Shown one piece after another: positions 6,584 to 22,326 of a stretch of DNA of 24,667 nucleotides. The DNA is taken from positions 1 through 24,667 of the IMG/VR virus record IMGVR_UViG_3300035158_000372. The stretch is one strand, 5' to 3'. Source of the DNA: a virus (Duplodnaviria > Caudoviricetes). Position 1 is the first letter of the stretch. Each line of letters begins with the position of its first letter. The notes under the pieces are model-generated. The model had not been told where the DNA came from. It did no database searches and saw only the letters and a list, made by a program, of their open reading frames with translations. A program made the position numbers and the translations under genes.

Positions 6584-7237
6584 GTGAAAATTATCTTCTG
6601 TTTACCCGGGAAGTCGTTCACCCAGGGCTTTATGCAGAGCTGGAGCAAAACCCAGGTTGATTTTATTCAGCGTGGTATCAGTTTTGCGGTGTCCTGGGGC
6701 TATCAGTCCAGTGTGTTTCACTGCCGCAACGATCTTGTGTCCATGAATACGAATCCAGAGCTGCCAGAAACCAAATTGCAGCCGTTCGAGGGACAGGACC
6801 ATGACTTTGTAATGTGGATTGACAGTGACACTGTCTGGGAACCGGACGATATTCATCGGTTGATTGCAGCGGATAAGGACATCATCAGTGGTTTGGTGCC
6901 TGTTTCGCCAGAACGATTGGCGATAGGGTTGTTCAACAATTTTGATCCGACGCTGTGGTTCAAGCCAGACGCCATTAATGGGTGGCCCCGGAACGAGGAA
7001 GGCCTCCTGGAGGTTGACTTCGCCGGGTTTGCATTCATGTTAGTTCGCCAGGGGGTGTTCGAGTCCATGGATTACCCGTGGTTCGTGCCCCGAGTGCGTA
7101 ACCTGGAGAACGGACGTATCCTATTTCCATCCGAGGACTTTGGATGGTGCTTACGTGCTTCCGAATTGGGATGGAAGATCTACGCACATCCAGATGTGAA
7201 ATTATCACACCAAAAAGAAATGACAATGGGGCCGTAG
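6584..7237 (+). CDS. GT-A fold (GT2-like) glycosyltransferase
   Basis: CRN, DxD motif WIDSD, AGFAFMLV..GVFE, SED catalytic-base motif and terminal H (LSHQK); GTG start 2 nt after the scaffold stop. Confidence 0.85.
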   Translation: MKIIFCLPGKSFTQGFMQSWSKTQVDFIQRGISFAVSWGYQSSVFHCRNDLVSMNTNPELPETKLQPFEGQDHDFVMWIDSDTVWEPDDIHRLIAADKDIISGLVPVSPERLAIGLFNNFDPTLWFKPDAINGWPRNEEGLLEVDFAGFAFMLVRQGVFESMDYPWFVPRVRNLENGRILFPSEDFGWCLRASELGWKIYAHPDVKLSHQKEMTMGP

Positions 7238-8867: not shown

Positions 8868-9446
8868 GTGACCTATACCGATGTTTCTATTTGCAATTTA
8901 GCCCTTTCTAAACTTGGCGAACAAACCTTGACCGATCTTGACGGTACGGACAAGGCAACCGATCTGTGTAACTTGTATTATAACCATGTCTTGAACACGG
9001 TCTTTTCTCTCCACGACTGGAGTGAAATTATCGTGCGTTCAGACGAACTTTCCGCAGAGGCCTCTGCACCCAATTCCGGATATTCCTACCAGTTTACCCT
9101 ACCCACAGATTGCCTCTATGTCTTGGAGGTGGTGGATTGGAATTACCCGTATCGCATTGAAGCTGGCAAACTACTCATGGACACGGAGAAGTGTTACATC
9201 CGTTACATCAAAGAGGAAGATACGGAGTCGGCTTTCAGTAAAGCAGCCCTTTTGGTCGAAGCCATAGCCTCACGCCTGGCCGCGGTTTTGGCTATTCCCC
9301 TGGCCAAAGGTATTCAGCTCAAGACTCTCATGGATCAAGACTTCGCAGGTGCACTGTTGTTGGCTCGTCAGCACGATGCCCGTTACCGGCAGGAGGAAGA
9401 CTCTGGGTCTGACCTTTGGGTCGATGCCCTGGAGAATGATGCGTAA
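8868..9446 (+). CDS. Tail adaptor (tail tubular protein A, T7 gp11-like)
   Basis: VSICNLALSKLGE, HDW, YQFTLPTDCL motifs; 192 aa; GGAGGT RBS, GTG start. Confidence 0.87.
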   Translation: MTYTDVSICNLALSKLGEQTLTDLDGTDKATDLCNLYYNHVLNTVFSLHDWSEIIVRSDELSAEASAPNSGYSYQFTLPTDCLYVLEVVDWNYPYRIEAGKLLMDTEKCYIRYIKEEDTESAFSKAALLVEAIASRLAAVLAIPLAKGIQLKTLMDQDFAGALLLARQHDARYRQEEDSGSDLWVDALENDA

Positions 9447-12406
9447 TGAAGGCCGAACCTTTCTTCAACAACTTTACCGGGGGCGAAATCTCTGAGCGTT
9501 TTGCCGGTCGCGTGGATACCCCAGACTACCTGCGGACCGTTCGCACGATGGAGAACCTTATCATACACCCGTCTGGGGGAGTCGATCGCCGGCCCGGTAC
9601 GGTTTATTGCGGTGAGGCCAAGATTCCCAATGGTAATGTGCGATTGATTCCGTTTGTCGCCTCGGCTGGACAGGCGTACATTCTGGAACTGACAGGATCC
9701 CTGCTTCGCATCTGGCAGGACGGTTCTCTGGTGCAGGACGGGGGTTCCCCCCTGGAGATCACAACACCATGGGATGCCGGTTATTTGTACGAGTTGAAAT
9801 ATGCCCAGTCTGGGAACGCGATGTACTTTGTACATCCGGAATATCAGGTGCGGAAGTTGCTCCTTGGCGAGGGTGCGTGGACCCTCACAGAGGCCTTCAC
9901 TTCGAGTTATTGGGCCGCCTCTCATTGCGCAATAGCGGGTACGCATGTGATGTTTTACGGGCAAGAAGGAGATGTTTGTGCCAAGTTGCCCGATCCAGAC
10001 ACCATGCCCGGGGCTGGCCCGCAGGATGAATGCCGATGGTCGCGTAGTGGACTTTACTGGGCGCAGCCTGAATACGACGATGGGGGCGGCCCGTTCCATA
10101 TCTACAAGCAAGTAGACGGGGAGTTTCAACACCTGTCCAATCCCCTGGATACAAATCCAACGGGAAACGTGCTGGACGTCTCGTGGTCTCCCGGAGACAA
10201 ATATTTGGCAGTCACGGATCCATCAGCGGATATTGTGCGTATCTATGAACGATCTGGTGATTCCTTCACCCAGGTGACCACTATTGATACGAGTGCCATC
10301 GGGGGAGGATATCATGTGTCTTACTCTCCTGACGGCAACTACCTGGCTTGTGGTGGCGATGACGGGAATTATTTGGAGATTTACAGTGTAAGTGGGACGA
10401 CTTACACCAAGGAAGAGGACCCAGCCACCCTGCCACCGAACACAGTATTGGATATTTGTTGGTCTCCAGACAGTCTTCACCTCGTTGTGGGCCACCTGGA
10501 CTCGCCTTACATGACGATTTATCGCAAATTGACTGGGAGCTTTGTGAAGCTCCTCGATCCGGCAACCCTACCATCTGGTCCCTGCAGGGCGGTGGGTTAT
10601 GCACCCAACAACACTTACCTGGCAGTGGGTGGTGGCGGGCCATTTCTCTACATCTATAAGCGTGTCGGTGCAACCTATACCAAGCTGGCAGATCCGGCGA
10701 CATTGCCAGATGACTCTCCCTATTATCTTAATTCGCTGGGATGGAGTTCAGATAGCGTGTACCTGGGAACAGATGGTTGGGCTACGTATGGTGTGGGTTG
10801 GTACAAGCGTTCCGGTGATACTTTCACCAAGCTTTCCAATCCGGATGTATATCCAGGTGATAATAACGCGGTATCGGCTTTTCATGCCTCCCCGAATGAA
10901 TGGCACAACATTCCATGGGACGAGGACACTTACCCAGCGGCGATAGCTTTCCACGAACAAAGGCTGATCCTGGCCCGCGGTTTAACCGTGTGGGGTTCTC
11001 GATCGGGTGATCCACAGGATTTCATGCAAGATGCCTCTGATGCAAGTGCTGGATTCGCATATACCTTCGCCTCGGATCTGATTGGCGAATCTATTCGCTG
11101 GATGGTTACCAAGCAACACAACATTATTCTGGGCACAACCATGGGTGAGTGGCTGATGACCGGTGGTAATGCCCCGATTTCGAACTCGAACGTATATGTT
11201 GAGCGAGCCTCAGCGTTTGGTAGTGCAAATATTCAGGGTATCGCCGCGAACGAGTCCATCCTTTATGCGCAAAAGGGTGCTCAGATATTGCGCGAGTTTT
11301 TGTACAGCGAGGAACGGGGTGGCTATCTTTCACCCAATCTCACCTATCTGGCGGACCATATTGGCAAGGAGGGGTTTGTCGAGTTTGCGTGGCAACGGAC
11401 GCCACGACCGGTGTTGTGGGCGGTCCGTTCCAACGGGGAGTTGGCTGCCCTGACGTATGACAGGAATCATGGTATTCAGGCTTGGCATCGCCATCCATTT
11501 ACCGATGGGCAGGTAATCAGCGTGGCCGTAATTCCCGGTAGCACAGAGGATGTTGTGTACTTGGTGGTGAAGAGGGTGATCGATGGAACCAATACTCAGT
11601 ATGTAGAATATATAAAACCCCTGGATTGGGGTGATGATCAGCGAGATTGTTTTCTGGTCGATAGCGGTCAAACCACCGATCTTACCTACGATTATTCAAC
11701 CTATATTACTGGCGCCACAAAGGCCGAGCCAGTGGTTGTTACTGCTCCCTCTCATCCGTTCCAGAATGACGACATCATCCGTATTTGGGATGTGGAGGGG
11801 ATGACCGAGTTGAACAACAAGGCTTATATGGTCAAAAACAAAGCCCTCAACACATTTGAGCTATACGAGACCGATGGTACAACCCCGGTGGATGGCACGG
11901 GATATAGCACCTATGAATCTGGTGGCATCTATGCTAAGGCGACGCGCACGATTACCGGGCTTGCGCACCTGGAGGGCGAAAAACTGGATGTATTTGCGGA
12001 TGGGGCATGGGTTGATATCAGTGACGAACCAGGGGACACGTCCTATACAGTATCCAGTGGAGAGATCACGATAAAAGACTATGCGAGTCTGATTCATGTG
12101 GGGTTGGGGTACACCCCCAAGTTGCAACCGCAGCGGCTCCGAGAGTTGCCGACACACTATAAGCGCATCGATCACGTAACCCTTCGTCTGTACAAGAGCC
12201 TTGGTGGGAAAGTCGGACAAGATGCAAACAGCTTGGACGATATCACATACAAATCAGGGAATCCCCCACCGTTTTTTACGGGTGACAAGGAAGTGCCGTT
12301 TCGTGGTGGTTATAACAAAGATGGTAATATTCTGATCACACAACCATATTGTTTGCCGCTTTCTATTTTGGCTCTCTTCATCGATGCGGACATCACGGAG
12401 ATTTAG
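9446..12406 (+). CDS. Tail nozzle (tail tubular protein B, T7 gp12-like) with inserted propeller and FCCH-like domains
   Basis: NFTGGEIS, N.IIHPSGGVDRRPGT, YP..I.FHEQRL, AWHRH, GLAHLEG motifs; TAATG overlap with the adaptor gene. Confidence 0.9.
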   Translation: MKAEPFFNNFTGGEISERFAGRVDTPDYLRTVRTMENLIIHPSGGVDRRPGTVYCGEAKIPNGNVRLIPFVASAGQAYILELTGSLLRIWQDGSLVQDGGSPLEITTPWDAGYLYELKYAQSGNAMYFVHPEYQVRKLLLGEGAWTLTEAFTSSYWAASHCAIAGTHVMFYGQEGDVCAKLPDPDTMPGAGPQDECRWSRSGLYWAQPEYDDGGGPFHIYKQVDGEFQHLSNPLDTNPTGNVLDVSWSPGDKYLAVTDPSADIVRIYERSGDSFTQVTTIDTSAIGGGYHVSYSPDGNYLACGGDDGNYLEIYSVSGTTYTKEEDPATLPPNTVLDICWSPDSLHLVVGHLDSPYMTIYRKLTGSFVKLLDPATLPSGPCRAVGYAPNNTYLAVGGGGPFLYIYKRVGATYTKLADPATLPDDSPYYLNSLGWSSDSVYLGTDGWATYGVGWYKRSGDTFTKLSNPDVYPGDNNAVSAFHASPNEWHNIPWDEDTYPAAIAFHEQRLILARGLTVWGSRSGDPQDFMQDASDASAGFAYTFASDLIGESIRWMVTKQHNIILGTTMGEWLMTGGNAPISNSNVYVERASAFGSANIQGIAANESILYAQKGAQILREFLYSEERGGYLSPNLTYLADHIGKEGFVEFAWQRTPRPVLWAVRSNGELAALTYDRNHGIQAWHRHPFTDGQVISVAVIPGSTEDVVYLVVKRVIDGTNTQYVEYIKPLDWGDDQRDCFLVDSGQTTDLTYDYSTYITGATKAEPVVVTAPSHPFQNDDIIRIWDVEGMTELNNKAYMVKNKALNTFELYETDGTTPVDGTGYSTYESGGIYAKATRTITGLAHLEGEKLDVFADGAWVDISDEPGDTSYTVSSGEITIKDYASLIHVGLGYTPKLQPQRLRELPTHYKRIDHVTLRLYKSLGGKVGQDANSLDDITYKSGNPPPFFTGDKEVPFRGGYNKDGNILITQPYCLPLSILALFIDADITEI
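9905..10897 (+). repeat. Seven WD40-like protein repeats (about 46-49 aa each) inside the nozzle gene
   Basis: Consensus YLAV...IYKR.G.TFTKL.DPATLP...V.WSPD repeated seven times over aa ~154-484. Confidence 0.85.
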
Positions 12407-15108: not shown

Positions 15109-18100
15109 ATGAGCGATACATGGCTTCCCCTTCCCGACGATTTGACACCGGTGGATCCGCGCACCATCAACGTACCTTCTCGGGGAACATGGCAACAGAT
15201 GGAACTGCCTTCAAAGCTGACTCCCCTGCGCATTCCCACCATGGAAGAGTTCGATCAGCATTTGCGGGATTCTTTTGAGCCCGATGTGATAGAGGAGTTT
15301 GACCGACAGGTGGAAGAGTTGGCTGCCGCTTCTGAGAATCCGGACGAGGAAAGGGCAAAGATCTACAACTCCCTGATGCTCTCTTTAATTACCGGTGAAA
15401 AACCTGACAGGATCTATGGCACCCATGATGCGCTGGTACGATTCTGGTCAGGTGGTAAACAGGAGAACGCCACATCTTTCGGCAAGCAACTGGCTGATAG
15501 CATTACCTCTTCTCTGATGCCAGGGCGGGCAATGCCCCTGATCTTGCGGCAGATGTTTGGTGATGATAGCGAAGAATTGGAGAACCAGATTCGGGAGCTG
15601 GAATCCCAGGTATCCGGGGTACCCGCTGAACAGGTGGACTTTGACTTCAACCTAAAAGAGCAGTTGGTTAAGCTTCTCTTCCCGTTTACCCGTCCCGCTC
15701 TGGCGTTGCGCAAGCTTTATGCTAACGGTTTTCGCAAAGCCCGTGAAGCGATCCAAAGTGGTGCGCCTGGTGATTTTTTCAAAGACTCGGTATTGGAGGC
15801 AGCACGAATCTTCCCCATGCAGGTTCAGGCCATGCTCAAGGGCGGAGTTCCTGGTGCCGTTTTGGGTATGGGGGGTATATCTGCTGGTGGTTTGACCGCG
15901 GCATTGGCTGGTGGACCAGAAGCCGCCGCCCCTTTTATTGCTGCTATGGGACCTGCCGGGAAAGCTGGTTTTCAATTGGGTACCGTGGGATATATCGGGT
16001 TAATCGAATCTACCCAGTCTTATCGACAATTAATGAACTTGGAATGGACGGACGCTGATGGCAGTGTTCAAAAGATTGATAAGAGCTATGCCGTGGCCAC
16101 CTCTCTGGCCGTTGGGGTGGTCAACTCACTGATTGAATATGCCCAGATCCGTACCATCATGAGCGGGATTCCCGGGGCAGAAAAACTCTTCCAGGGTGTT
16201 GCTCGTAAGGCTACAGCAAAGGTCTTGGCCGACCAGTCTCTCAAGAGAATGGTGCTTGGTGTATTGGCTAAGGGGGGCGCCAAGTATGCCGGTAGTGTAG
16301 CTTCGAATGTGGCAGAGGAAATGTCTCAGGAAGCCGTGACCATGATCTTTGCCGAGATCACCAAAGAGATCAATAACGCGGTGAAAGGTACCGAGTTTGA
16401 GCACGAATGGAAGAACATCATCCCCCAGATGTTAGCAGTTGGAAAGGCTACTGCTAAGGGCTTTGCTCTTCTCTCCGTGTTCGGTAACACCATCCAAACT
16501 GCGGCTAATCTCAAGACCGTGGTGGAGGGGAAGGTCAACTATGACGCGGCAATCGCGAAGCTGCAACAATCCATTCCGGATCTGACCGCTGCGGAAGCCC
16601 GGGATGTATTGGTGAAACATGAACAGATGCGCCAGGAGCAGACAAAACGTACTCAGAAGATGCTTTCTGAGGGACGGGCAGTGGAGGGGGAATCTCGGCG
16701 TAAGCACATTCCAGTTCCGGAAGCTGCCGAGGGAGAACCGTTAACACAACGTGGTGAGTCCGCCGTTGTCGAACGAAAAGCCGCAGAAGCTCAAGTCGCC
16801 GAACCTACGATCGCTTTTCGGGAAGTGACCCCAGAAGAGTTTGTAAAGTTCCGCGATCAGATCGCGCCCGAGCGTAAACCATTCATTACCTTGTATACAC
16901 CCGAAGAGCTGAGAGGACCTGACTGGGAAGGATCGCGGTTTTTTGTCTCCGAACAACGGGACGGATTGGTTGGATACGCGATTTCACCTACTGGAGAGCT
17001 GTTCAATCTGTTCAACAATTCCGGTGTTCGGGGTCTTGGTCAAGATGCGATTGTCCACGCAACACAACAGGGGGCAACTGAACTCTTTGCATTTGATACC
17101 CTGGAAGGGATGTACTCCGAGCACGGTTTCGAGACCTATAAACGCGAGCCTTGGAATCCGGAGTATGCTCCAGAGGACTGGGACTACGAGAAATATGGTA
17201 CCCCTGGCGTTGTATACATGAGGCGACCAGCCGAGACTGTTCGACCAAGGGTAGCATCCCAGATTCCGCAACGTTATCGTCACAACCCCGATCGACCGCG
17301 GACAATGCCGTCACCGGCGTATGCTGTTCAGCTGGACGACGAAACAATCTACTTTGATCCAGATGCAACTTCCCCATTAGAAACGGCCAAGAACTTGGGG
17401 ATCCCAGCCCACCGTATCAGCGGCTCGGGGGTTGTTACAAAAGCCGGTACCTACAAAGCCTACGCCCAGCAAGCCAATCCCTTCGATACCCCCAGACAGC
17501 GACTGGTTTCTAAGCTCAAACAACTACAGGCGATCAACCCACATATCAAGGATGAGCAACTTCCGTATTTTTTCAAAGCCCTCCAGGCGCAAGCCCTGGC
17601 GCGTGGACTGACTCTGGACCAAATGCTCAAAGAAGATCTGGTCGATGAAATGATCAGTACCGCAGCCATTGATGATGCCATGGCGCGGAGCAGTGAAGAG
17701 TATCTCCAAGCTGATGCGCATGACATTTTCAAAAACCTGGCTGCTCAGGAAAAGAATCCTATTTTGCCACCCGGTCGTGGTGACCAGAACAACGAGGAGC
17801 TACAAACACGGATACGCGAACGGGCCATCACGCGGGGTCTGGAGGAAATCGGGCGTGCTCTGTCCGATGGCCTGGATCTCGATCCGGCACTTAATTGGTA
17901 TCGTGGAGCGGTGGATGACATGCTGCGTGTGAGCACGGAAATGGTGCCTGAGCTGGCTAATCCAAGCAAGGCTCGCCTGTTCAAGGCGCTCTTGGCTATC
18001 ACCAGTGCCGGGACTCCGGTGCGGGAGAACTACAATTTTGCCCTTGATATTGTCCGCGAGCTATTTCGCACGGGCAAAATGCCTATCGAGGAAACCACAT

Positions 18101-21100
18101 ACCGAAGTACGTTTACCGGTGAACAGCGCACAGTTTTGGCCTTGATCGTTGGTGGTGTGGGGACTGACAAGATCGTTGGTGGACCGCAGCTCCAGAATGT
18201 GCGCTTGAACGCCGAGCGCTTGCAACAACTCCATGATGAGTTGGGTGTTGATGGAACCGTGCGGTGGTTGACAACCAAGCATGACGGTCGTGAGATCTTG
18301 GACTTTTTTGGCCTGAAACATCACGGCACGGTAACCAAAACAGGACAGCATTATGGTGCTGAGGTTTTTGGCCCCAAGATTGGTGCGTACTTCCTGAATC
18401 TGGACGGGAACCATGAAATGCTCGTAACAGACCGTTGGTTTGTGAGAACTTGGAACCGGTGGATGGGGACGATTGAGTCACCGTCGACACGGGAGGTTAC
18501 AATCCAGCGGGTACGCAACAAAACAGAACGCAGGCTCATGCAGGAGTCTATCGAGGAAATGGTGCATCAGTTGACAGAGCTTACGGGCAAGCCTTGGGGA
18601 ATCGACCAGGTTCAGGCTGCGCTCTGGTATCTGGAAAAATCGATTTACGAGAGAGCTGGACTAACCAACGAAGAAGGTGTATCATACAAGGAGATTGCCA
18701 ATGAACGCTATAGACGATATCAACAAGGCCGAGACGCTCGTAGAGATGAAGAAGCAAGGGTACTTCACGAAAGAGAACGGGCGCAAGATCTTGAAGGGGG
18801 TCAAAGAGTACAAGAAGAAGGTCGCGGAGCGCGAGAAGAAGTAGACGACGTTCCGTACTTTTTGTACCAGCTCTCACCGGTCTATCACGGCACCTACGCA
18901 AACTTTGATCAATTCAGTACAGATTTTATCGGTGAAGGGGAGGGGGCCGATTCCTTCGGTTTGGGTCTCTACTTTACCAATACACGTGAAATAGCCGAGT
19001 ATTACGCAGAGGTGACTGCCCGAAAAAAGGGTGGTAAGGGTGCCGTATATGAAGTCTCACTCGAATCCATCAACTGGATGGAGTGGTACGATTACGTTGA
19101 CAAAGATACAACACAATACCTTGCAAGAACACTCAACGTAGAGCGCGACAAGTGGGTGAAGTATGCACCGGCCCGGCGCCGGGAGCACTTTGACCGCGCC
19201 GTTGCGGCTCTCCGGAAGTATGCTGATCCTTCGTTCAAATACTCATTTACCGGCCAAGAACTATATGGGGTTCTGGAAAGCGCCTTGGGTACCAAAGAAC
19301 GCGCATCTCGTTTTCTGCTGAGCGCGGGTATCGACGGGATCCGGTATCCAGCGGACTCTCTGGCCGCGATCGAGGCCGGCGAAAAGCCAAGTTACGACTC
19401 TGGTACGAATTACGTGGTCTTTGACGCCGATCAGGTCACTATTAACAACCACCTGCTTTACAGTTCATACAAGGCCGCGGTCCAGTTCATGAAGGATGGT
19501 CGGGCGCTGATATATGCAACCCGGCACACTGACTTGTCAAGTTTGCTGCACGAAATGGCACATATTTGGCGTAGAAAAATTGTCGATCCAAGGGTGCGGG
19601 CGCGAATCTCTGAATGGGTTGGAGAAGATCTGGCCAGCTGGGACCAGTGGTCTCGCCAATCTGAGGAGAAGTTTGCCCGGGGTATGGAGCAATTTTTCGC
19701 GGAGGGTAGGGCACCCGTTCCCCAGCTGGAGGGTGTGTTTCGGAGCATGAGGCATTGGCTCAAGGGTATGGTACGATTTGTGGATGGTGTGCGTCTCCCG
19801 AAAGAAGTGCGCGAGGCTTATGACACCATGTTTACTCCACGTGATCCCGCCTCGCTTGGGGATACAGCTGCCACCTGGGAGCTGATTGAGCTGGAGCGCC
19901 AAAACCGGATTCTGTTTGATCTGCTTTCCGACGAGGACAAGAATGCCGCCGCAGGACAGTACTCACGGGATACGGGTGAAGACCTCCAGGCTGCCTACGA
20001 AGCGCAGCGGAACCTCTGGTTTGGCAACAAGGATGAACGGGTTTTTATTGCCAAAGTGGAGTCTCAGCGAGCACAAGCCCGTATCGGTGAGATTGTGCGG
20101 CGTATGGGGCATAAGAAAGATCTTAAGACCATGGCCCGGAAGTACGACGAGGCTATGCACATTTATATTGACACCAAGCGTGATCCTGGGGCGATCGAGG
20201 AATACTGGGAGTTCCTGAATCAGGCTCAGCGTGAAATTGTTACACTTTCACAGCATCTTCCGGCCGAGTTGAAAGAAATGGCTGACGAGATGGGGGAAGT
20301 GTATCTGGCGACCGGCAAGGAAGCCAAAGATCATGAAGTGATCCAGAATCTCATCAAGAACTACGTGAACCGCGCCTGGGTGCTCAGGGGTGAGGATCGC
20401 GGGGCTAAGTTCAAGACTACCACCTCACACGCACGGCACCGGAAGTTCAGGACCGTTATCGAGGGGTGGGCTCAGGGCTATGATCTGCGCTACAAGTCTG
20501 CAACCGTGGCCATGCGCGAGTATCGCCAGGAGATGATTCGCACCATCGAGGACAAGCGATTTATTAAGGCTCTATCGAGGATGCGTGATACAGAGGGCCG
20601 GCCCGTGCTATCCGATAAGCGCCTGGAAGGGTTCAGCCAAGTAGAACACCCCAACTTCAAGCTCTACAAGTACGCTGGCACAACCAAGGTTGCTTTGCTG
20701 ACCCGGAGTCTGCGCGAATACTATGAGAAAGCTAAAGAGACACGTTCAAATACCGAAGGTATCCCAGTGGCTACACCCGGCGCCGTCCGGAAGCTCGAAG
20801 AGGTGATTGTTAACTCCTTGATGATCCGTGGTTACACAGAGGGCGAGGCCCAGAATGCACTATCCAGCGTGAAACGTGCCGGCAGCAAGGACGACGTGTC
20901 TGTAATTGTCAAGGAAATCGAGAAGGTCAGCAGGGAACGTGAACACGTGATTGCCGAGTCCTTCCGCGAGGTCTTTGGCAAGAACTTTATTCTCATCTCG
21001 GATGGCACGATCCTGGAGCGTCGAGAACTGTTTGCGCCAGAAAAAATTGCTCAAAACTTGAACAATATTCTGGGACGTTCGAAGTTGGCTGACCGGCCAG

Positions 21101-22326
21101 TCGTGAGGGTGATTACCAAGTTTAATGCGATCGTGAAATCGATAATCCTGACCAGTTCTATGTTTCACCACTTTGCCTTTACGCGGTCCTATTACCTGGG
21201 GACCAACCGTAAGGCATGGAGGGAGATGAACATCTTCAAGGCCCACAAGGAAGGAAAGCGTGCAATTCAGAATCTCCAGCCAGAGATTCTCTTGGGGGTG
21301 CGCAACGGTTTGACCCTGGGCGTACTTCAAGATTGGGATGAGCAACTCGTGCTCGAACCAACGTTCTTGGATAAGTGGATGGACAAGGTAGGGTTCGCGC
21401 AGGGGTTGAGAAATGGTGTGCGCAATGCACAAAAATGGTGGGCCGATCGGTTGTTTGACAGTTTTGGTGCTGGTTTGAAAGCTAAGGCATTTCTCATCGA
21501 GTACCGTAACCAACTCAAGAAAAACCCCGGGGAGGATCCAAATGTCTTGGCTGCAAGAGTTGCCAATCTCATCAACGATGATTTTGGTGGGCTTCATCTT
21601 GGTCGCATGGGACGAAATCCAACGGCGCAACACATATTCCGGATTCTATTTCTGGCGCCCGATTGGACCGAATCAAACTTTCGAACACTTACGAAGGCTA
21701 TGGGGTTCGTGGTTCAGGATAATCTTTTTAAGCCTCAAAAACTTGGCAAGGCAGATCGCCGGCTTTATCAGGCATTTTGGGCCAAGGCGCTAATCAAAGG
21801 CATGGCTGCCACGGTGTTCCTAAACTTCATCTCTGCCGGTGGGGATCCAGAACGATTCCTTGATAACTACCGGAGAGCAGTGGAGGCCGGCAATATGCGC
21901 GTACTCGATATTGATGTTACCTGGCTCTGGAAGGCCCTTGGGGGTAAAGGCAAGAAACGGAAGTATTTCTCTTTGATTGGACACTTTAGGGATCCGATAA
22001 AATGGTTGCGATACCCGCTTAAGTCGGTACGTCACAAGTTGGCCGTAGCACCGAGTACGGGGCTGGAAGCGCTCACTAAGCAAGATTGGGCTGGCCGTGG
22101 TTTCACCACTTTTGGCGAACTCCTGAAAACGGGTGAGACTGTGGCCTGGTGGCCAGAGGGCAGGGCATATACGGATTACTCATGGCTGCCCTCATTTATA
22201 CTCAACCAGCTGGTTGGGTACACCCCAATCCAGCTCCAGAATCTGTTTGCAGCTTTGAGCGGAGAGCAGGATTGGTTTGAATCTGTGGGCAATATGGTGG
22301 GACTTGGGATTAGGAGTACATATTAA
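15109..22326 (+). CDS. Giant polyvalent internal virion/ejection protein (GNAT, HhH-glycosylase-like, ART-like and zincin domains)
   Basis: 2405 aa at the gp16 position; Gly/Ala hydrophobic N-region; GNAT-like aa ~570-706; GPK...TDRW..R/QAALW aa ~930-1184; YHGT/GLYF/GIDGI/NYVVFD aa ~1258-1447; HEMAH aa 1481-1485. Confidence 0.85.
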   Translation: MSDTWLPLPDDLTPVDPRTINVPSRGTWQQMELPSKLTPLRIPTMEEFDQHLRDSFEPDVIEEFDRQVEELAAASENPDEERAKIYNSLMLSLITGEKPDRIYGTHDALVRFWSGGKQENATSFGKQLADSITSSLMPGRAMPLILRQMFGDDSEELENQIRELESQVSGVPAEQVDFDFNLKEQLVKLLFPFTRPALALRKLYANGFRKAREAIQSGAPGDFFKDSVLEAARIFPMQVQAMLKGGVPGAVLGMGGISAGGLTAALAGGPEAAAPFIAAMGPAGKAGFQLGTVGYIGLIESTQSYRQLMNLEWTDADGSVQKIDKSYAVATSLAVGVVNSLIEYAQIRTIMSGIPGAEKLFQGVARKATAKVLADQSLKRMVLGVLAKGGAKYAGSVASNVAEEMSQEAVTMIFAEITKEINNAVKGTEFEHEWKNIIPQMLAVGKATAKGFALLSVFGNTIQTAANLKTVVEGKVNYDAAIAKLQQSIPDLTAAEARDVLVKHEQMRQEQTKRTQKMLSEGRAVEGESRRKHIPVPEAAEGEPLTQRGESAVVERKAAEAQVAEPTIAFREVTPEEFVKFRDQIAPERKPFITLYTPEELRGPDWEGSRFFVSEQRDGLVGYAISPTGELFNLFNNSGVRGLGQDAIVHATQQGATELFAFDTLEGMYSEHGFETYKREPWNPEYAPEDWDYEKYGTPGVVYMRRPAETVRPRVASQIPQRYRHNPDRPRTMPSPAYAVQLDDETIYFDPDATSPLETAKNLGIPAHRISGSGVVTKAGTYKAYAQQANPFDTPRQRLVSKLKQLQAINPHIKDEQLPYFFKALQAQALARGLTLDQMLKEDLVDEMISTAAIDDAMARSSEEYLQADAHDIFKNLAAQEKNPILPPGRGDQNNEELQTRIRERAITRGLEEIGRALSDGLDLDPALNWYRGAVDDMLRVSTEMVPELANPSKARLFKALLAITSAGTPVRENYNFALDIVRELFRTGKMPIEETTYRSTFTGEQRTVLALIVGGVGTDKIVGGPQLQNVRLNAERLQQLHDELGVDGTVRWLTTKHDGREILDFFGLKHHGTVTKTGQHYGAEVFGPKIGAYFLNLDGNHEMLVTDRWFVRTWNRWMGTIESPSTREVTIQRVRNKTERRLMQESIEEMVHQLTELTGKPWGIDQVQAALWYLEKSIYERAGLTNEEGVSYKEIANERYRRYQQGRDARRDEEARVLHERERAQDLEGGQRVQEEGRGAREEVDDVPYFLYQLSPVYHGTYANFDQFSTDFIGEGEGADSFGLGLYFTNTREIAEYYAEVTARKKGGKGAVYEVSLESINWMEWYDYVDKDTTQYLARTLNVERDKWVKYAPARRREHFDRAVAALRKYADPSFKYSFTGQELYGVLESALGTKERASRFLLSAGIDGIRYPADSLAAIEAGEKPSYDSGTNYVVFDADQVTINNHLLYSSYKAAVQFMKDGRALIYATRHTDLSSLLHEMAHIWRRKIVDPRVRARISEWVGEDLASWDQWSRQSEEKFARGMEQFFAEGRAPVPQLEGVFRSMRHWLKGMVRFVDGVRLPKEVREAYDTMFTPRDPASLGDTAATWELIELERQNRILFDLLSDEDKNAAAGQYSRDTGEDLQAAYEAQRNLWFGNKDERVFIAKVESQRAQARIGEIVRRMGHKKDLKTMARKYDEAMHIYIDTKRDPGAIEEYWEFLNQAQREIVTLSQHLPAELKEMADEMGEVYLATGKEAKDHEVIQNLIKNYVNRAWVLRGEDRGAKFKTTTSHARHRKFRTVIEGWAQGYDLRYKSATVAMREYRQEMIRTIEDKRFIKALSRMRDTEGRPVLSDKRLEGFSQVEHPNFKLYKYAGTTKVALLTRSLREYYEKAKETRSNTEGIPVATPGAVRKLEEVIVNSLMIRGYTEGEAQNALSSVKRAGSKDDVSVIVKEIEKVSREREHVIAESFREVFGKNFILISDGTILERRELFAPEKIAQNLNNILGRSKLADRPVVRVITKFNAIVKSIILTSSMFHHFAFTRSYYLGTNRKAWREMNIFKAHKEGKRAIQNLQPEILLGVRNGLTLGVLQDWDEQLVLEPTFLDKWMDKVGFAQGLRNGVRNAQKWWADRLFDSFGAGLKAKAFLIEYRNQLKKNPGEDPNVLAARVANLINDDFGGLHLGRMGRNPTAQHIFRILFLAPDWTESNFRTLTKAMGFVVQDNLFKPQKLGKADRRLYQAFWAKALIKGMAATVFLNFISAGGDPERFLDNYRRAVEAGNMRVLDIDVTWLWKALGGKGKKRKYFSLIGHFRDPIKWLRYPLKSVRHKLAVAPSTGLEALTKQDWAGRGFTTFGELLKTGETVAWWPEGRAYTDYSWLPSFILNQLVGYTPIQLQNLFAALSGEQDWFESVGNMVGLGIRSTY
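18701..18844 (+). CDS. Nested +1-frame 47-aa protein inside the giant gene (MNAIDDINKAETLVEMKKQGYFTKENGRKILKGVKEYKKKVAEREKK)
   Basis: AAGGAG 18688-18693, 7-nt spacer, ATG 18701, TAG 18842-18844; 40/47 codons end in G/C in this frame versus 10/48 in the host frame. Confidence 0.75.
   Translation: MNAIDDINKAETLVEMKKQGYFTKENGRKILKGVKEYKKKVAEREKK

Follow-up and report, generated by a model that had tools for sequence, protein, structure and literature searches.

Small genes with their own start signals can lie wholly inside larger ones in another reading frame, as lambda Rz1 does in Rz and comS does in srfA of Bacillus subtilis. In polymorphic toxin–immunity cassettes, including those of the phage MuF toxins, an enzyme domain is followed by a small, variable, linked gene, and a small gene directly after a domain that attacks nucleic acids is the layout of a toxin–immunity pair. 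The acidic proteins Ugi and p56 mimic DNA and block the uracil-DNA glycosylase (UDG)-fold enzyme of the host. Here we describe a 47-codon gene hidden in the +1 frame of a 2405-codon phage gene, at the end of a region predicted to fold as a helix-hairpin-helix (HhH-GPD) glycosylase. It lies at positions 18701 to 18844 of the IMG/VR record IMGVR_UViG_3300035158_000372; the stretch analyzed, called the window below, is the whole 24,667-base contig, and all window coordinates refer to it.

The nested gene resembles Rz1 and comS in being a complete open reading frame (ORF) inside a longer one, with a start signal of its own. It differs from them in that, across the overlap, its host frame evolves neutrally, in that the partner gene is also found free and antisense in relatives, and in showing no sign of a spanin or competence function. 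Relatives in which the enzyme domain is C-terminal share exactly the layout of toxin–immunity cassettes, whereas the window has an internal enzyme domain and reads its small gene in another frame of the same gene. As with Ugi and p56, a small phage protein is paired with a glycosylase, but here it is basic (isoelectric point, pI, 9.7; net charge +6), predicted to be helical and linked to the phage’s own HhH-fold domain. The DNA-mimic type of inhibitor was rejected as a class for it because of that charge.

The host gene belongs with the phage polyvalent proteins, which passages of Iyer et al. 2017 (PMC5512222) present as large multidomain proteins among the late virion genes. Like them, its product is a large multidomain protein of a late virion-gene block, with several unrelated enzyme domains that include the ADP-ribosyltransferase (ART) domain ART-PolyVal, and its place in the gene order, taken with those passages, suggests that it is packaged and ejected. 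The words “glycosylase,” “overlap,” and “linker” have 0 occurrences in the main text of PMC5512222, and the passages drawn from it describe no nested genes or cognate inhibitors. Term searches of PMC7824862 likewise found no nested partner genes in polyvalent virion proteins.

Excerpts of PMC11855218 describe the ShiLan domain, an HNH endonuclease read out of frame within a phage methylase, as a homing insertion. Both are hidden genes whose other frame reads as a tolerated loop of the host protein, but the gene in the window encodes a 47-aa helical hairpin with no match to HNH or any other nuclease or family and is tied to one neighboring domain across distant phages, and a homing insertion of the ShiLan type was rejected. 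In the portion of bioRxiv 10.1101/2025.10.29.685425 used here, the defense glycosylases Dag1 and Dag2 employ the HhH-GPD fold as a weapon against modified DNA, and phage inhibitors of such glycosylases appear as speculation only. Embedded genes, hidden out-of-frame nucleases, toxin–immunity cassettes and weaponized HhH glycosylases have thus each been described separately. No description of nested partner genes in polyvalent virion proteins was found in the literature searched, a body that leaves subscription papers and supplements outside it.

A gene in the +1 frame

The ORF is almost certainly a real gene. The features of the locus are these:

15109 to 22326, plus strand: host gene for the 2405-codon polyvalent protein, closing the virion-gene block (portal, capsid, two tail proteins, internal virion protein)
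17836 to 18723 (aa 910-1205), plus strand: HhH-GPD glycosylase-like domain by predicted fold, DUF7178-related, likely partner of the nested protein
18376 to 18432, plus strand: predicted catalytic pair, Lys1090 (18376-18378) and Asp1108 (18430-18432), chosen for their invariance
18657 to 18685, plus strand: sigma-70-like site TGGACT-17-TATCAT, a possible internal promoter inside the host frame, its two hexamers 44 and 21 nt before the nested ATG
18688 to 18693, plus strand: Shine–Dalgarno (SD) sequence AAGGAG, reading Lys-Glu in the host frame and identical in the closest relative, L190
18701 to 18844, plus strand: nested +1-frame gene for a basic 47-aa protein, predicted to be a two-helix hairpin, recognized by frame-specific selection, profile match and structural model
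18877 to 19437 (aa 1257-1443), plus strand: ART-PolyVal domain (PF18760, E 7e-10), adjacent to the nested gene without being its constant partner

A previous, sequence-only reading of the contig had noticed the SD, the ATG and a switch of codon bias between frames, and all its counts were reproduced. The SD sits 7 nt ahead of the ATG at 18701, and the ORF runs for 47 sense codons to a TAG. In the nested frame 40/47 codons end in G or C, all 6 glutamates are GAG and 10 of the 12 lysines are AAG; the host frame over the same stretch has 10/48 codons ending in G or C, with 4 AGA and 3 CGA. That reading also had the ORF stop about 35 nt ahead of an ART-like domain, in agreement with the Pfam ART-PolyVal match, which starts 33 nt later. 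Its statement that the ORF begins just after the HhH-like domain has to be corrected, since the conserved C-terminal S-Y-x-x-x-A of the domain runs into the SD and start codon, and in alignment A8 the nested gene overlaps the end of the domain.

Chance expectation was estimated by holding the host protein fixed and redrawing its synonymous codons from the phage’s own usage in 20,000 trials. An SD, an ATG and an open frame appeared jointly in 14.8% of them, so these three signs are weak when taken alone, and the case therefore rests on relatives. A host GC3 (the share of codons ending in G or C) of 10/48 or lower was seen in 0/20,000 trials. Across 5,571 other 48-codon windows of nine long genes the lowest GC3 is 17/48. 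RNA folding at the nested start is unremarkable (z 0.79). A look-up for 17800-19500 listed no sequencing run and no RNA holder, a blank that bears on expression neither way.

The comparison with L190, whose glycosylase-like domain is 69% identical to that of the window, separates the two frames. L190 retains the SD, the ATG and the same stop codon, and a 21-nt deletion leaves both frames intact. With the sequences aligned via the host protein, the ratio of nonsynonymous to synonymous differences (pN/pS) is 0.30 in the nested frame (95% bootstrap 0.15-0.54) and 1.03 in the host frame (0.53-2.37), and six independent other pairs give 0.25 nested and 1.31 host; these are uncorrected proportions, over 39 codons for the window and L190 and over 339 codons. 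In seven control stretches of the same gene in the window and L190 the pattern is reversed, with 0.21-0.41 in the host frame and 1.11-1.57 in the +1 frame. Purifying selection is thus seen in the nested frame and neutrality in the host frame, as the sequence-only reading had supposed in proposing that the host frame merely stays open and in suggesting a frame-specific test of the dN/dS type, run here as pN/pS.

Sixteen nested peptides of the closest relatives, the window not among them, were made into a profile, and it ranks the window ORF first of 575 six-frame segments, at 17.2 bits (E 1e-4), and the next segment scores 3.6 bits. The peptide is a divergent member of this family, called LPHP-type, and itself lacks the LPHP motif. 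Its model is a two-helix hairpin (helices 3-18 and 24-46) with a predicted local distance difference test score (pLDDT) of 88 and a predicted template modeling score of 0.48. No match was found in Pfam, PHROGs, NCBIfam or PADLOC, a word-based homologue search gave nothing, and Foldseek with the model returned a single match at E 8.6 and no meaningful one in the PDB. An exact look-up among about 15 billion predicted proteins did not find the peptide.

Recurrence was scored as an SD of at least 5 nt, an ATG and an ORF of at least 40 aa in the +1 frame, 30-210 nt after the conserved Trp of the domain, with the host frame continuing. Homologues had been named earlier as the place to look for such an ORF, and it does recur in them: 38/78 clusters at 90% identity carry it, as do 21/45 at 70% and 13/26 at 50%, compared with 0-5 of 74-78 in nine control windows and 0 in the +2 frame. 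The 30-210 nt range was set after the first loci had been inspected; the loci fetched later serve as a held-out set, in which 6/11 were positive and five control windows gave 0/11. Seven of 190 loci were dropped for want of an anchor (5 were later recovered) and 1 more in another run, and L084, probably mis-anchored, was kept in the denominators as a miss. Three GenBank phages whose domains are 27-31% identical all have an SD-led +1 ATG after the domain, and in each only the host coding sequence is annotated.

Other nested peptides occupy the same place in other clades. In a third large clade with a different nested peptide, a strong-SD start lies at +160 to +181 in 37/81 loci. In the clade of loci L118 to L164 the nested ORFs are long (124-135 aa) and start behind AGGAGGT, +169 nt after the Trp; they belong to a different peptide family, and selection is shared by both frames. 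The nested ORF of the cultured Limnohabitans phage DC33 (PQ492659) is also of a family other than the window's. In distant clades, otherwise different nested peptides close with the motif P-G-L-T-R-x-E-A/I-x-E-x-x-E-x-F-G (L005, L025, L026, L042, L044, L045, L214, L215 and L226); within the fetched loci, 9/9 matches follow the glycosylase domain in the +1 frame, 220-340 nt past the Trp, and this C-terminal motif may be a second small module.

The domain at the start of the overlap

The domain upstream of the nested gene is predicted, from its modeled structure, to be a DNA glycosylase/lyase. An AlphaFold model of aa 910-1194 has a mean pLDDT of 87.7 and the overall fold of the HhH-GPD superfamily. 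VIA-align, run on 48,161 chains, places the Thermotoga maritima 8-oxoguanine glycosylase (OGG) 3n0u at the top (Z 11.6, root-mean-square deviation 4.2, 199 aligned residues). All 23 matches at Z of at least 6.6 are glycosylases or related base-processing enzymes, and the next one, unrelated, is at Z 4.7. The top rows from Foldseek are OGG enzymes too. Lys1090 and Asp1108, 18 residues apart, are invariant in two alignments (A1 and A8), and the motif G.K.G..D.W is present in 141/143 loci. The 18-residue spacing would fit the catalytic pair of the bifunctional OGG enzymes, and the two residues are a predicted pair. The domain resembles OGG, EndoIII, Qng1 and Dag1/Dag2 in predicted fold and, putatively, in an invariant Lys/Asp pair, and differs from them in being phage encoded, within a virion protein, with at most 15% identity to its top structural matches.

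Sequence profiles of the domain reached no solved glycosylase. A profile search with it gave 1,830 representative proteins at E ≤0.001, mostly long among the 150 matches listed, and its structural relatives in a viral library are mostly large proteins of uncultured phages; a GTDB scan gave 1 locus. Pfam DUF7178 matches 19/50 relatives, and the window’s own copy has no match. No mention of DUF7178-like domains was found in the literature searched.

Linkage of the small gene to the glycosylase-like domain

Two profiles, one from 7 free genes and one from 16 nested genes, were run at E ≤0.05 on 10,460 six-frame segments from 143 non-redundant loci. Where the domain is C-terminal in its protein, 40/46 loci have a match to a partner family (33/39 without the training loci). 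Most of these small genes belong to a second family, called GKMP-type: 24 are free GKMP genes and 11 are GKMP genes that overlap the host tail, while 3 matches are antisense and 2 are LPHP-type, one overlapping and one free (L253, E 0.038). Where the domain is internal, 33/93 loci match (16/76 without the training loci and the window), and GKMP-type genes occur nested mid-gene as well, for example in L022 (E 1.5e-11). The small gene is therefore found beside the domain in four arrangements: nested mid-gene, overlapping the host tail, free downstream and antisense. The antisense GKMP-type partners, all on the minus strand, overlap the tail of the host gene at L176:2294-2449, L168:2348-2506 and L230:2228-2395.

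The GKMP-type family has 275 database proteins; among the 120 listed, Pfam domains and functional names are absent, and a free GKMP protein retrieved no usable match from the ESM Atlas. By eye, a helix-Gly-turn-helix pattern is common to both families. Scans of viral contigs with the peptide alignments found 2 loci each, all on contigs already in the set, a result that says nothing about peptide genes away from the glycosylase.

The ART domain behaves differently from the glycosylase-like one. Neither peptide family occurs in any of 84 loci selected for ART (0/84), and SD-led +1 ORFs in the matching window are at background level (3/67); these loci are distant relatives, 83/84 of them with no glycosylase in the fetched flank, and the control is not clade-matched. 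The presence of the small gene tracks the glycosylase-like domain and not ART, and its constant neighbor is therefore the former, to which it is very probably tied. A small gene constantly linked to an enzyme domain, as in toxin–immunity pairs, is what the counts at C-terminal and internal loci and the SD-ATG enrichment describe. The expectation that the small gene travels with an adjacent enzyme domain was thus borne out, with the upstream domain as the partner. The earlier idea that the pair might be exchanged between phages as a single module would be consistent with the variety of domains found downstream, and no more than that.

In a quick tree, the 24 LPHP-type rows, the window among them, form one clade (Shimodaira–Hasegawa approximate likelihood ratio test 94), and 12 GKMP-type rows fall within a clade of 13 (93). 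Immunity genes typically show different small proteins beside different clades of one enzyme, and the clade-specific small proteins here would fit that pattern without proving it.

A candidate promoter

The sigma-70-like site at 18657-18685 is a possible internal promoter and is offered as a lead. The region holds one site of this kind, against a chance expectation of 1.0. L190 has the same two hexamers, and four-fold sites there are conserved at 7/8 compared with 80/224 elsewhere, with 0/216 other runs of eight reaching 7. Across internal loci, promoter-like sites near the domain end number 23/54, compared with 5.5 +/- 2.1 under synonymous resampling; many overlie conserved Leu-Trp-Tyr codons, at a position that differs from the window’s. 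Among non-nested partner genes, TTGAC(A/T) occurs no more than 75 nt upstream in 20/30, and in 15 it stands at 43-48 nt, the distance of the window's own site; the background is 45/1,400 windows. In L228, L241 and L247 a TTGACA lies 35 nt before the free partner ATG, which would give a leaderless transcript. In L232 an unrelated Cys/His-rich ORF stands between the host stop and the partner gene, and TTGACA-17-TATACT is found at the domain end.

What the small protein may do

We give a probability of roughly 55% to the reading that the 47-aa peptide is the cognate inhibitor, or immunity protein, of the upstream glycosylase-like domain, as the layout suggests. Packaged and ejected alongside the DNA, the giant protein would act through its glycosylase domain on host DNA or a competitor's, by base removal or nicking. 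The small helical protein would be made from its own SD and possibly from its own sigma-70-like promoter, hence earlier than the late gene, and it would bind and inhibit the enzyme, sparing the DNA of the phage and of the producing cell. The host frame over the overlap would be a passive linker, a read-through that allows an enzyme and its inhibitor to fit in the middle of a multidomain protein. The fuller proposal, that ejection proteins carry a DNA-attacking HhH glycosylase together with an out-of-frame inhibitor gene that has its own ribosome binding site and internal promoter, and that the apparent linker is the read-through of that gene, falls a little short of even odds.

Several observations weigh against the inhibitor reading. 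Enzymatic activity and toxicity are both putative. For a helical protein the best fold score is a modest one, and no PDB match from Foldseek reached E ≤0.001. Profile–profile comparison of the two peptide families with hhalign was not significant (probability 0.3 and 0.45, E 0.19 and 0.13), and the evidence for a free-standing life comes mostly from the GKMP family, which may be analogous and not homologous to the window’s; the L253 gene is the only free-standing LPHP-type gene seen. Neither family is matched in 60/93 loci with an internal domain. The shared clades in the tree are no proof of coevolution because peptide and domain are physically linked, and linkage alone would give them. Selection in the third large clade is weaker and mixed (nested 0.51, host 0.71, 14 pairs). 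The TTGAC(A/T) signal comes mostly from one clade, and a windowed test at 70% clustering gave 0/16, while a transcript from the site in the window would start inside the SD. The phage glycosylase inhibitors Ugi and p56 are acidic, whereas the window peptide is basic and most free GKMP genes are acidic. An ART domain also lies downstream in a good share of the nested loci, as given below.

The alternative that survives best, though an improbable one, is that the small protein is indeed the cognate partner of the glycosylase but serves it as a folding chaperone, activating subunit or packaging aid; all of the linkage and selection evidence would suit any obligate partner. The antisense copies and the free copies led by TTGACA point instead to expression uncoupled from the late gene, which is better suited to protection, and the domain is predicted to fold confidently alone in silico, which is weak evidence in the same direction. 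Only slightly less credible is a DNA-binding protein that regulates its own or a neighboring promoter or coats the phage DNA against the glycosylase. The LPHP family is mostly basic (pI >9 in 23/30), and the short-leader promoters of the free genes resemble those of phage repressors; yet the predicted hairpin has none of the family or structural matches listed above, 6/7 free GKMP genes in set A6 are acidic, and an inverted repeat around the promoter is seen, by eye, at only a few loci.

It is distinctly unlikely that the peptide inhibits the downstream ART domain. ART-PolyVal does lie within about 460 aa downstream in 14/30 nested loci, L190 included, but 16/30 have no Pfam ART in the fetched flank, and the loci selected for ART lack both peptide families. 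A programmed +1 frameshift, yielding a shortened giant protein that ends in the peptide and no separate protein, is less likely still: an SD-like run can stimulate +1 frameshifts, as in prfB, and no stop interrupts the +1 frame for 12 codons before the nested ATG, but the enriched feature is an ATG at SD distance, and in the other family the partner genes stand free or run antisense, out of a frameshift’s reach. A chance ORF in a low-complexity linker, for which the resampling rate of the three start signs and the empty word-based search speak, is scarcely tenable against frame-specific selection, positional recurrence, the profile ranking and the extreme host GC3.

Other features of the contig

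The contig carries a podovirus-type late block of terminase, portal, protease, major capsid, two tail proteins, an internal virion protein, a 735-aa gene and the 2405-aa gene. Between the protease and capsid genes, a 217-aa gene at 6584-7237 has weak matches to glycosyltransferase families (Pfam E 7e-4, below the cut-off). The second tail protein (9446-12406) has an E1 FCCH-like match and, at aa ~240-400, a WD40-like beta-propeller region. At relaxed thresholds the giant gene has six other off-frame ORFs led by an SD, with GC3 of 0.47-0.73. Its other +1-frame ORFs include one at 21542-21793, of 83 aa behind GGAGG with GC3 0.61, and one at 16619-16744, of 41 aa with GC3 0.73, where the host GC3 is low.

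Significance

Annotation overlooks the nested gene, as its absence from predicted proteins and from the gene calls of the three GenBank phages illustrates. The analysis assigns a fold and a partner gene to the DUF7178-like domains, and it suggests a rule for finding the cognate partners of uncharacterized polyvalent-protein domains, which is to read the linkers in the +1 frame. As a practical matter, the hidden peptide should be coexpressed when such domains are cloned. If the peptide is an inhibitor, it would define a class in which HhH-GPD glycosylases are inhibited by small helical proteins other than acidic DNA mimics. It would also account for the placing of toxic domains in the middle of a polyvalent virion protein and would explain how a phage can produce a DNA-damaging enzyme and load it into virions while its own genome stays unharmed.

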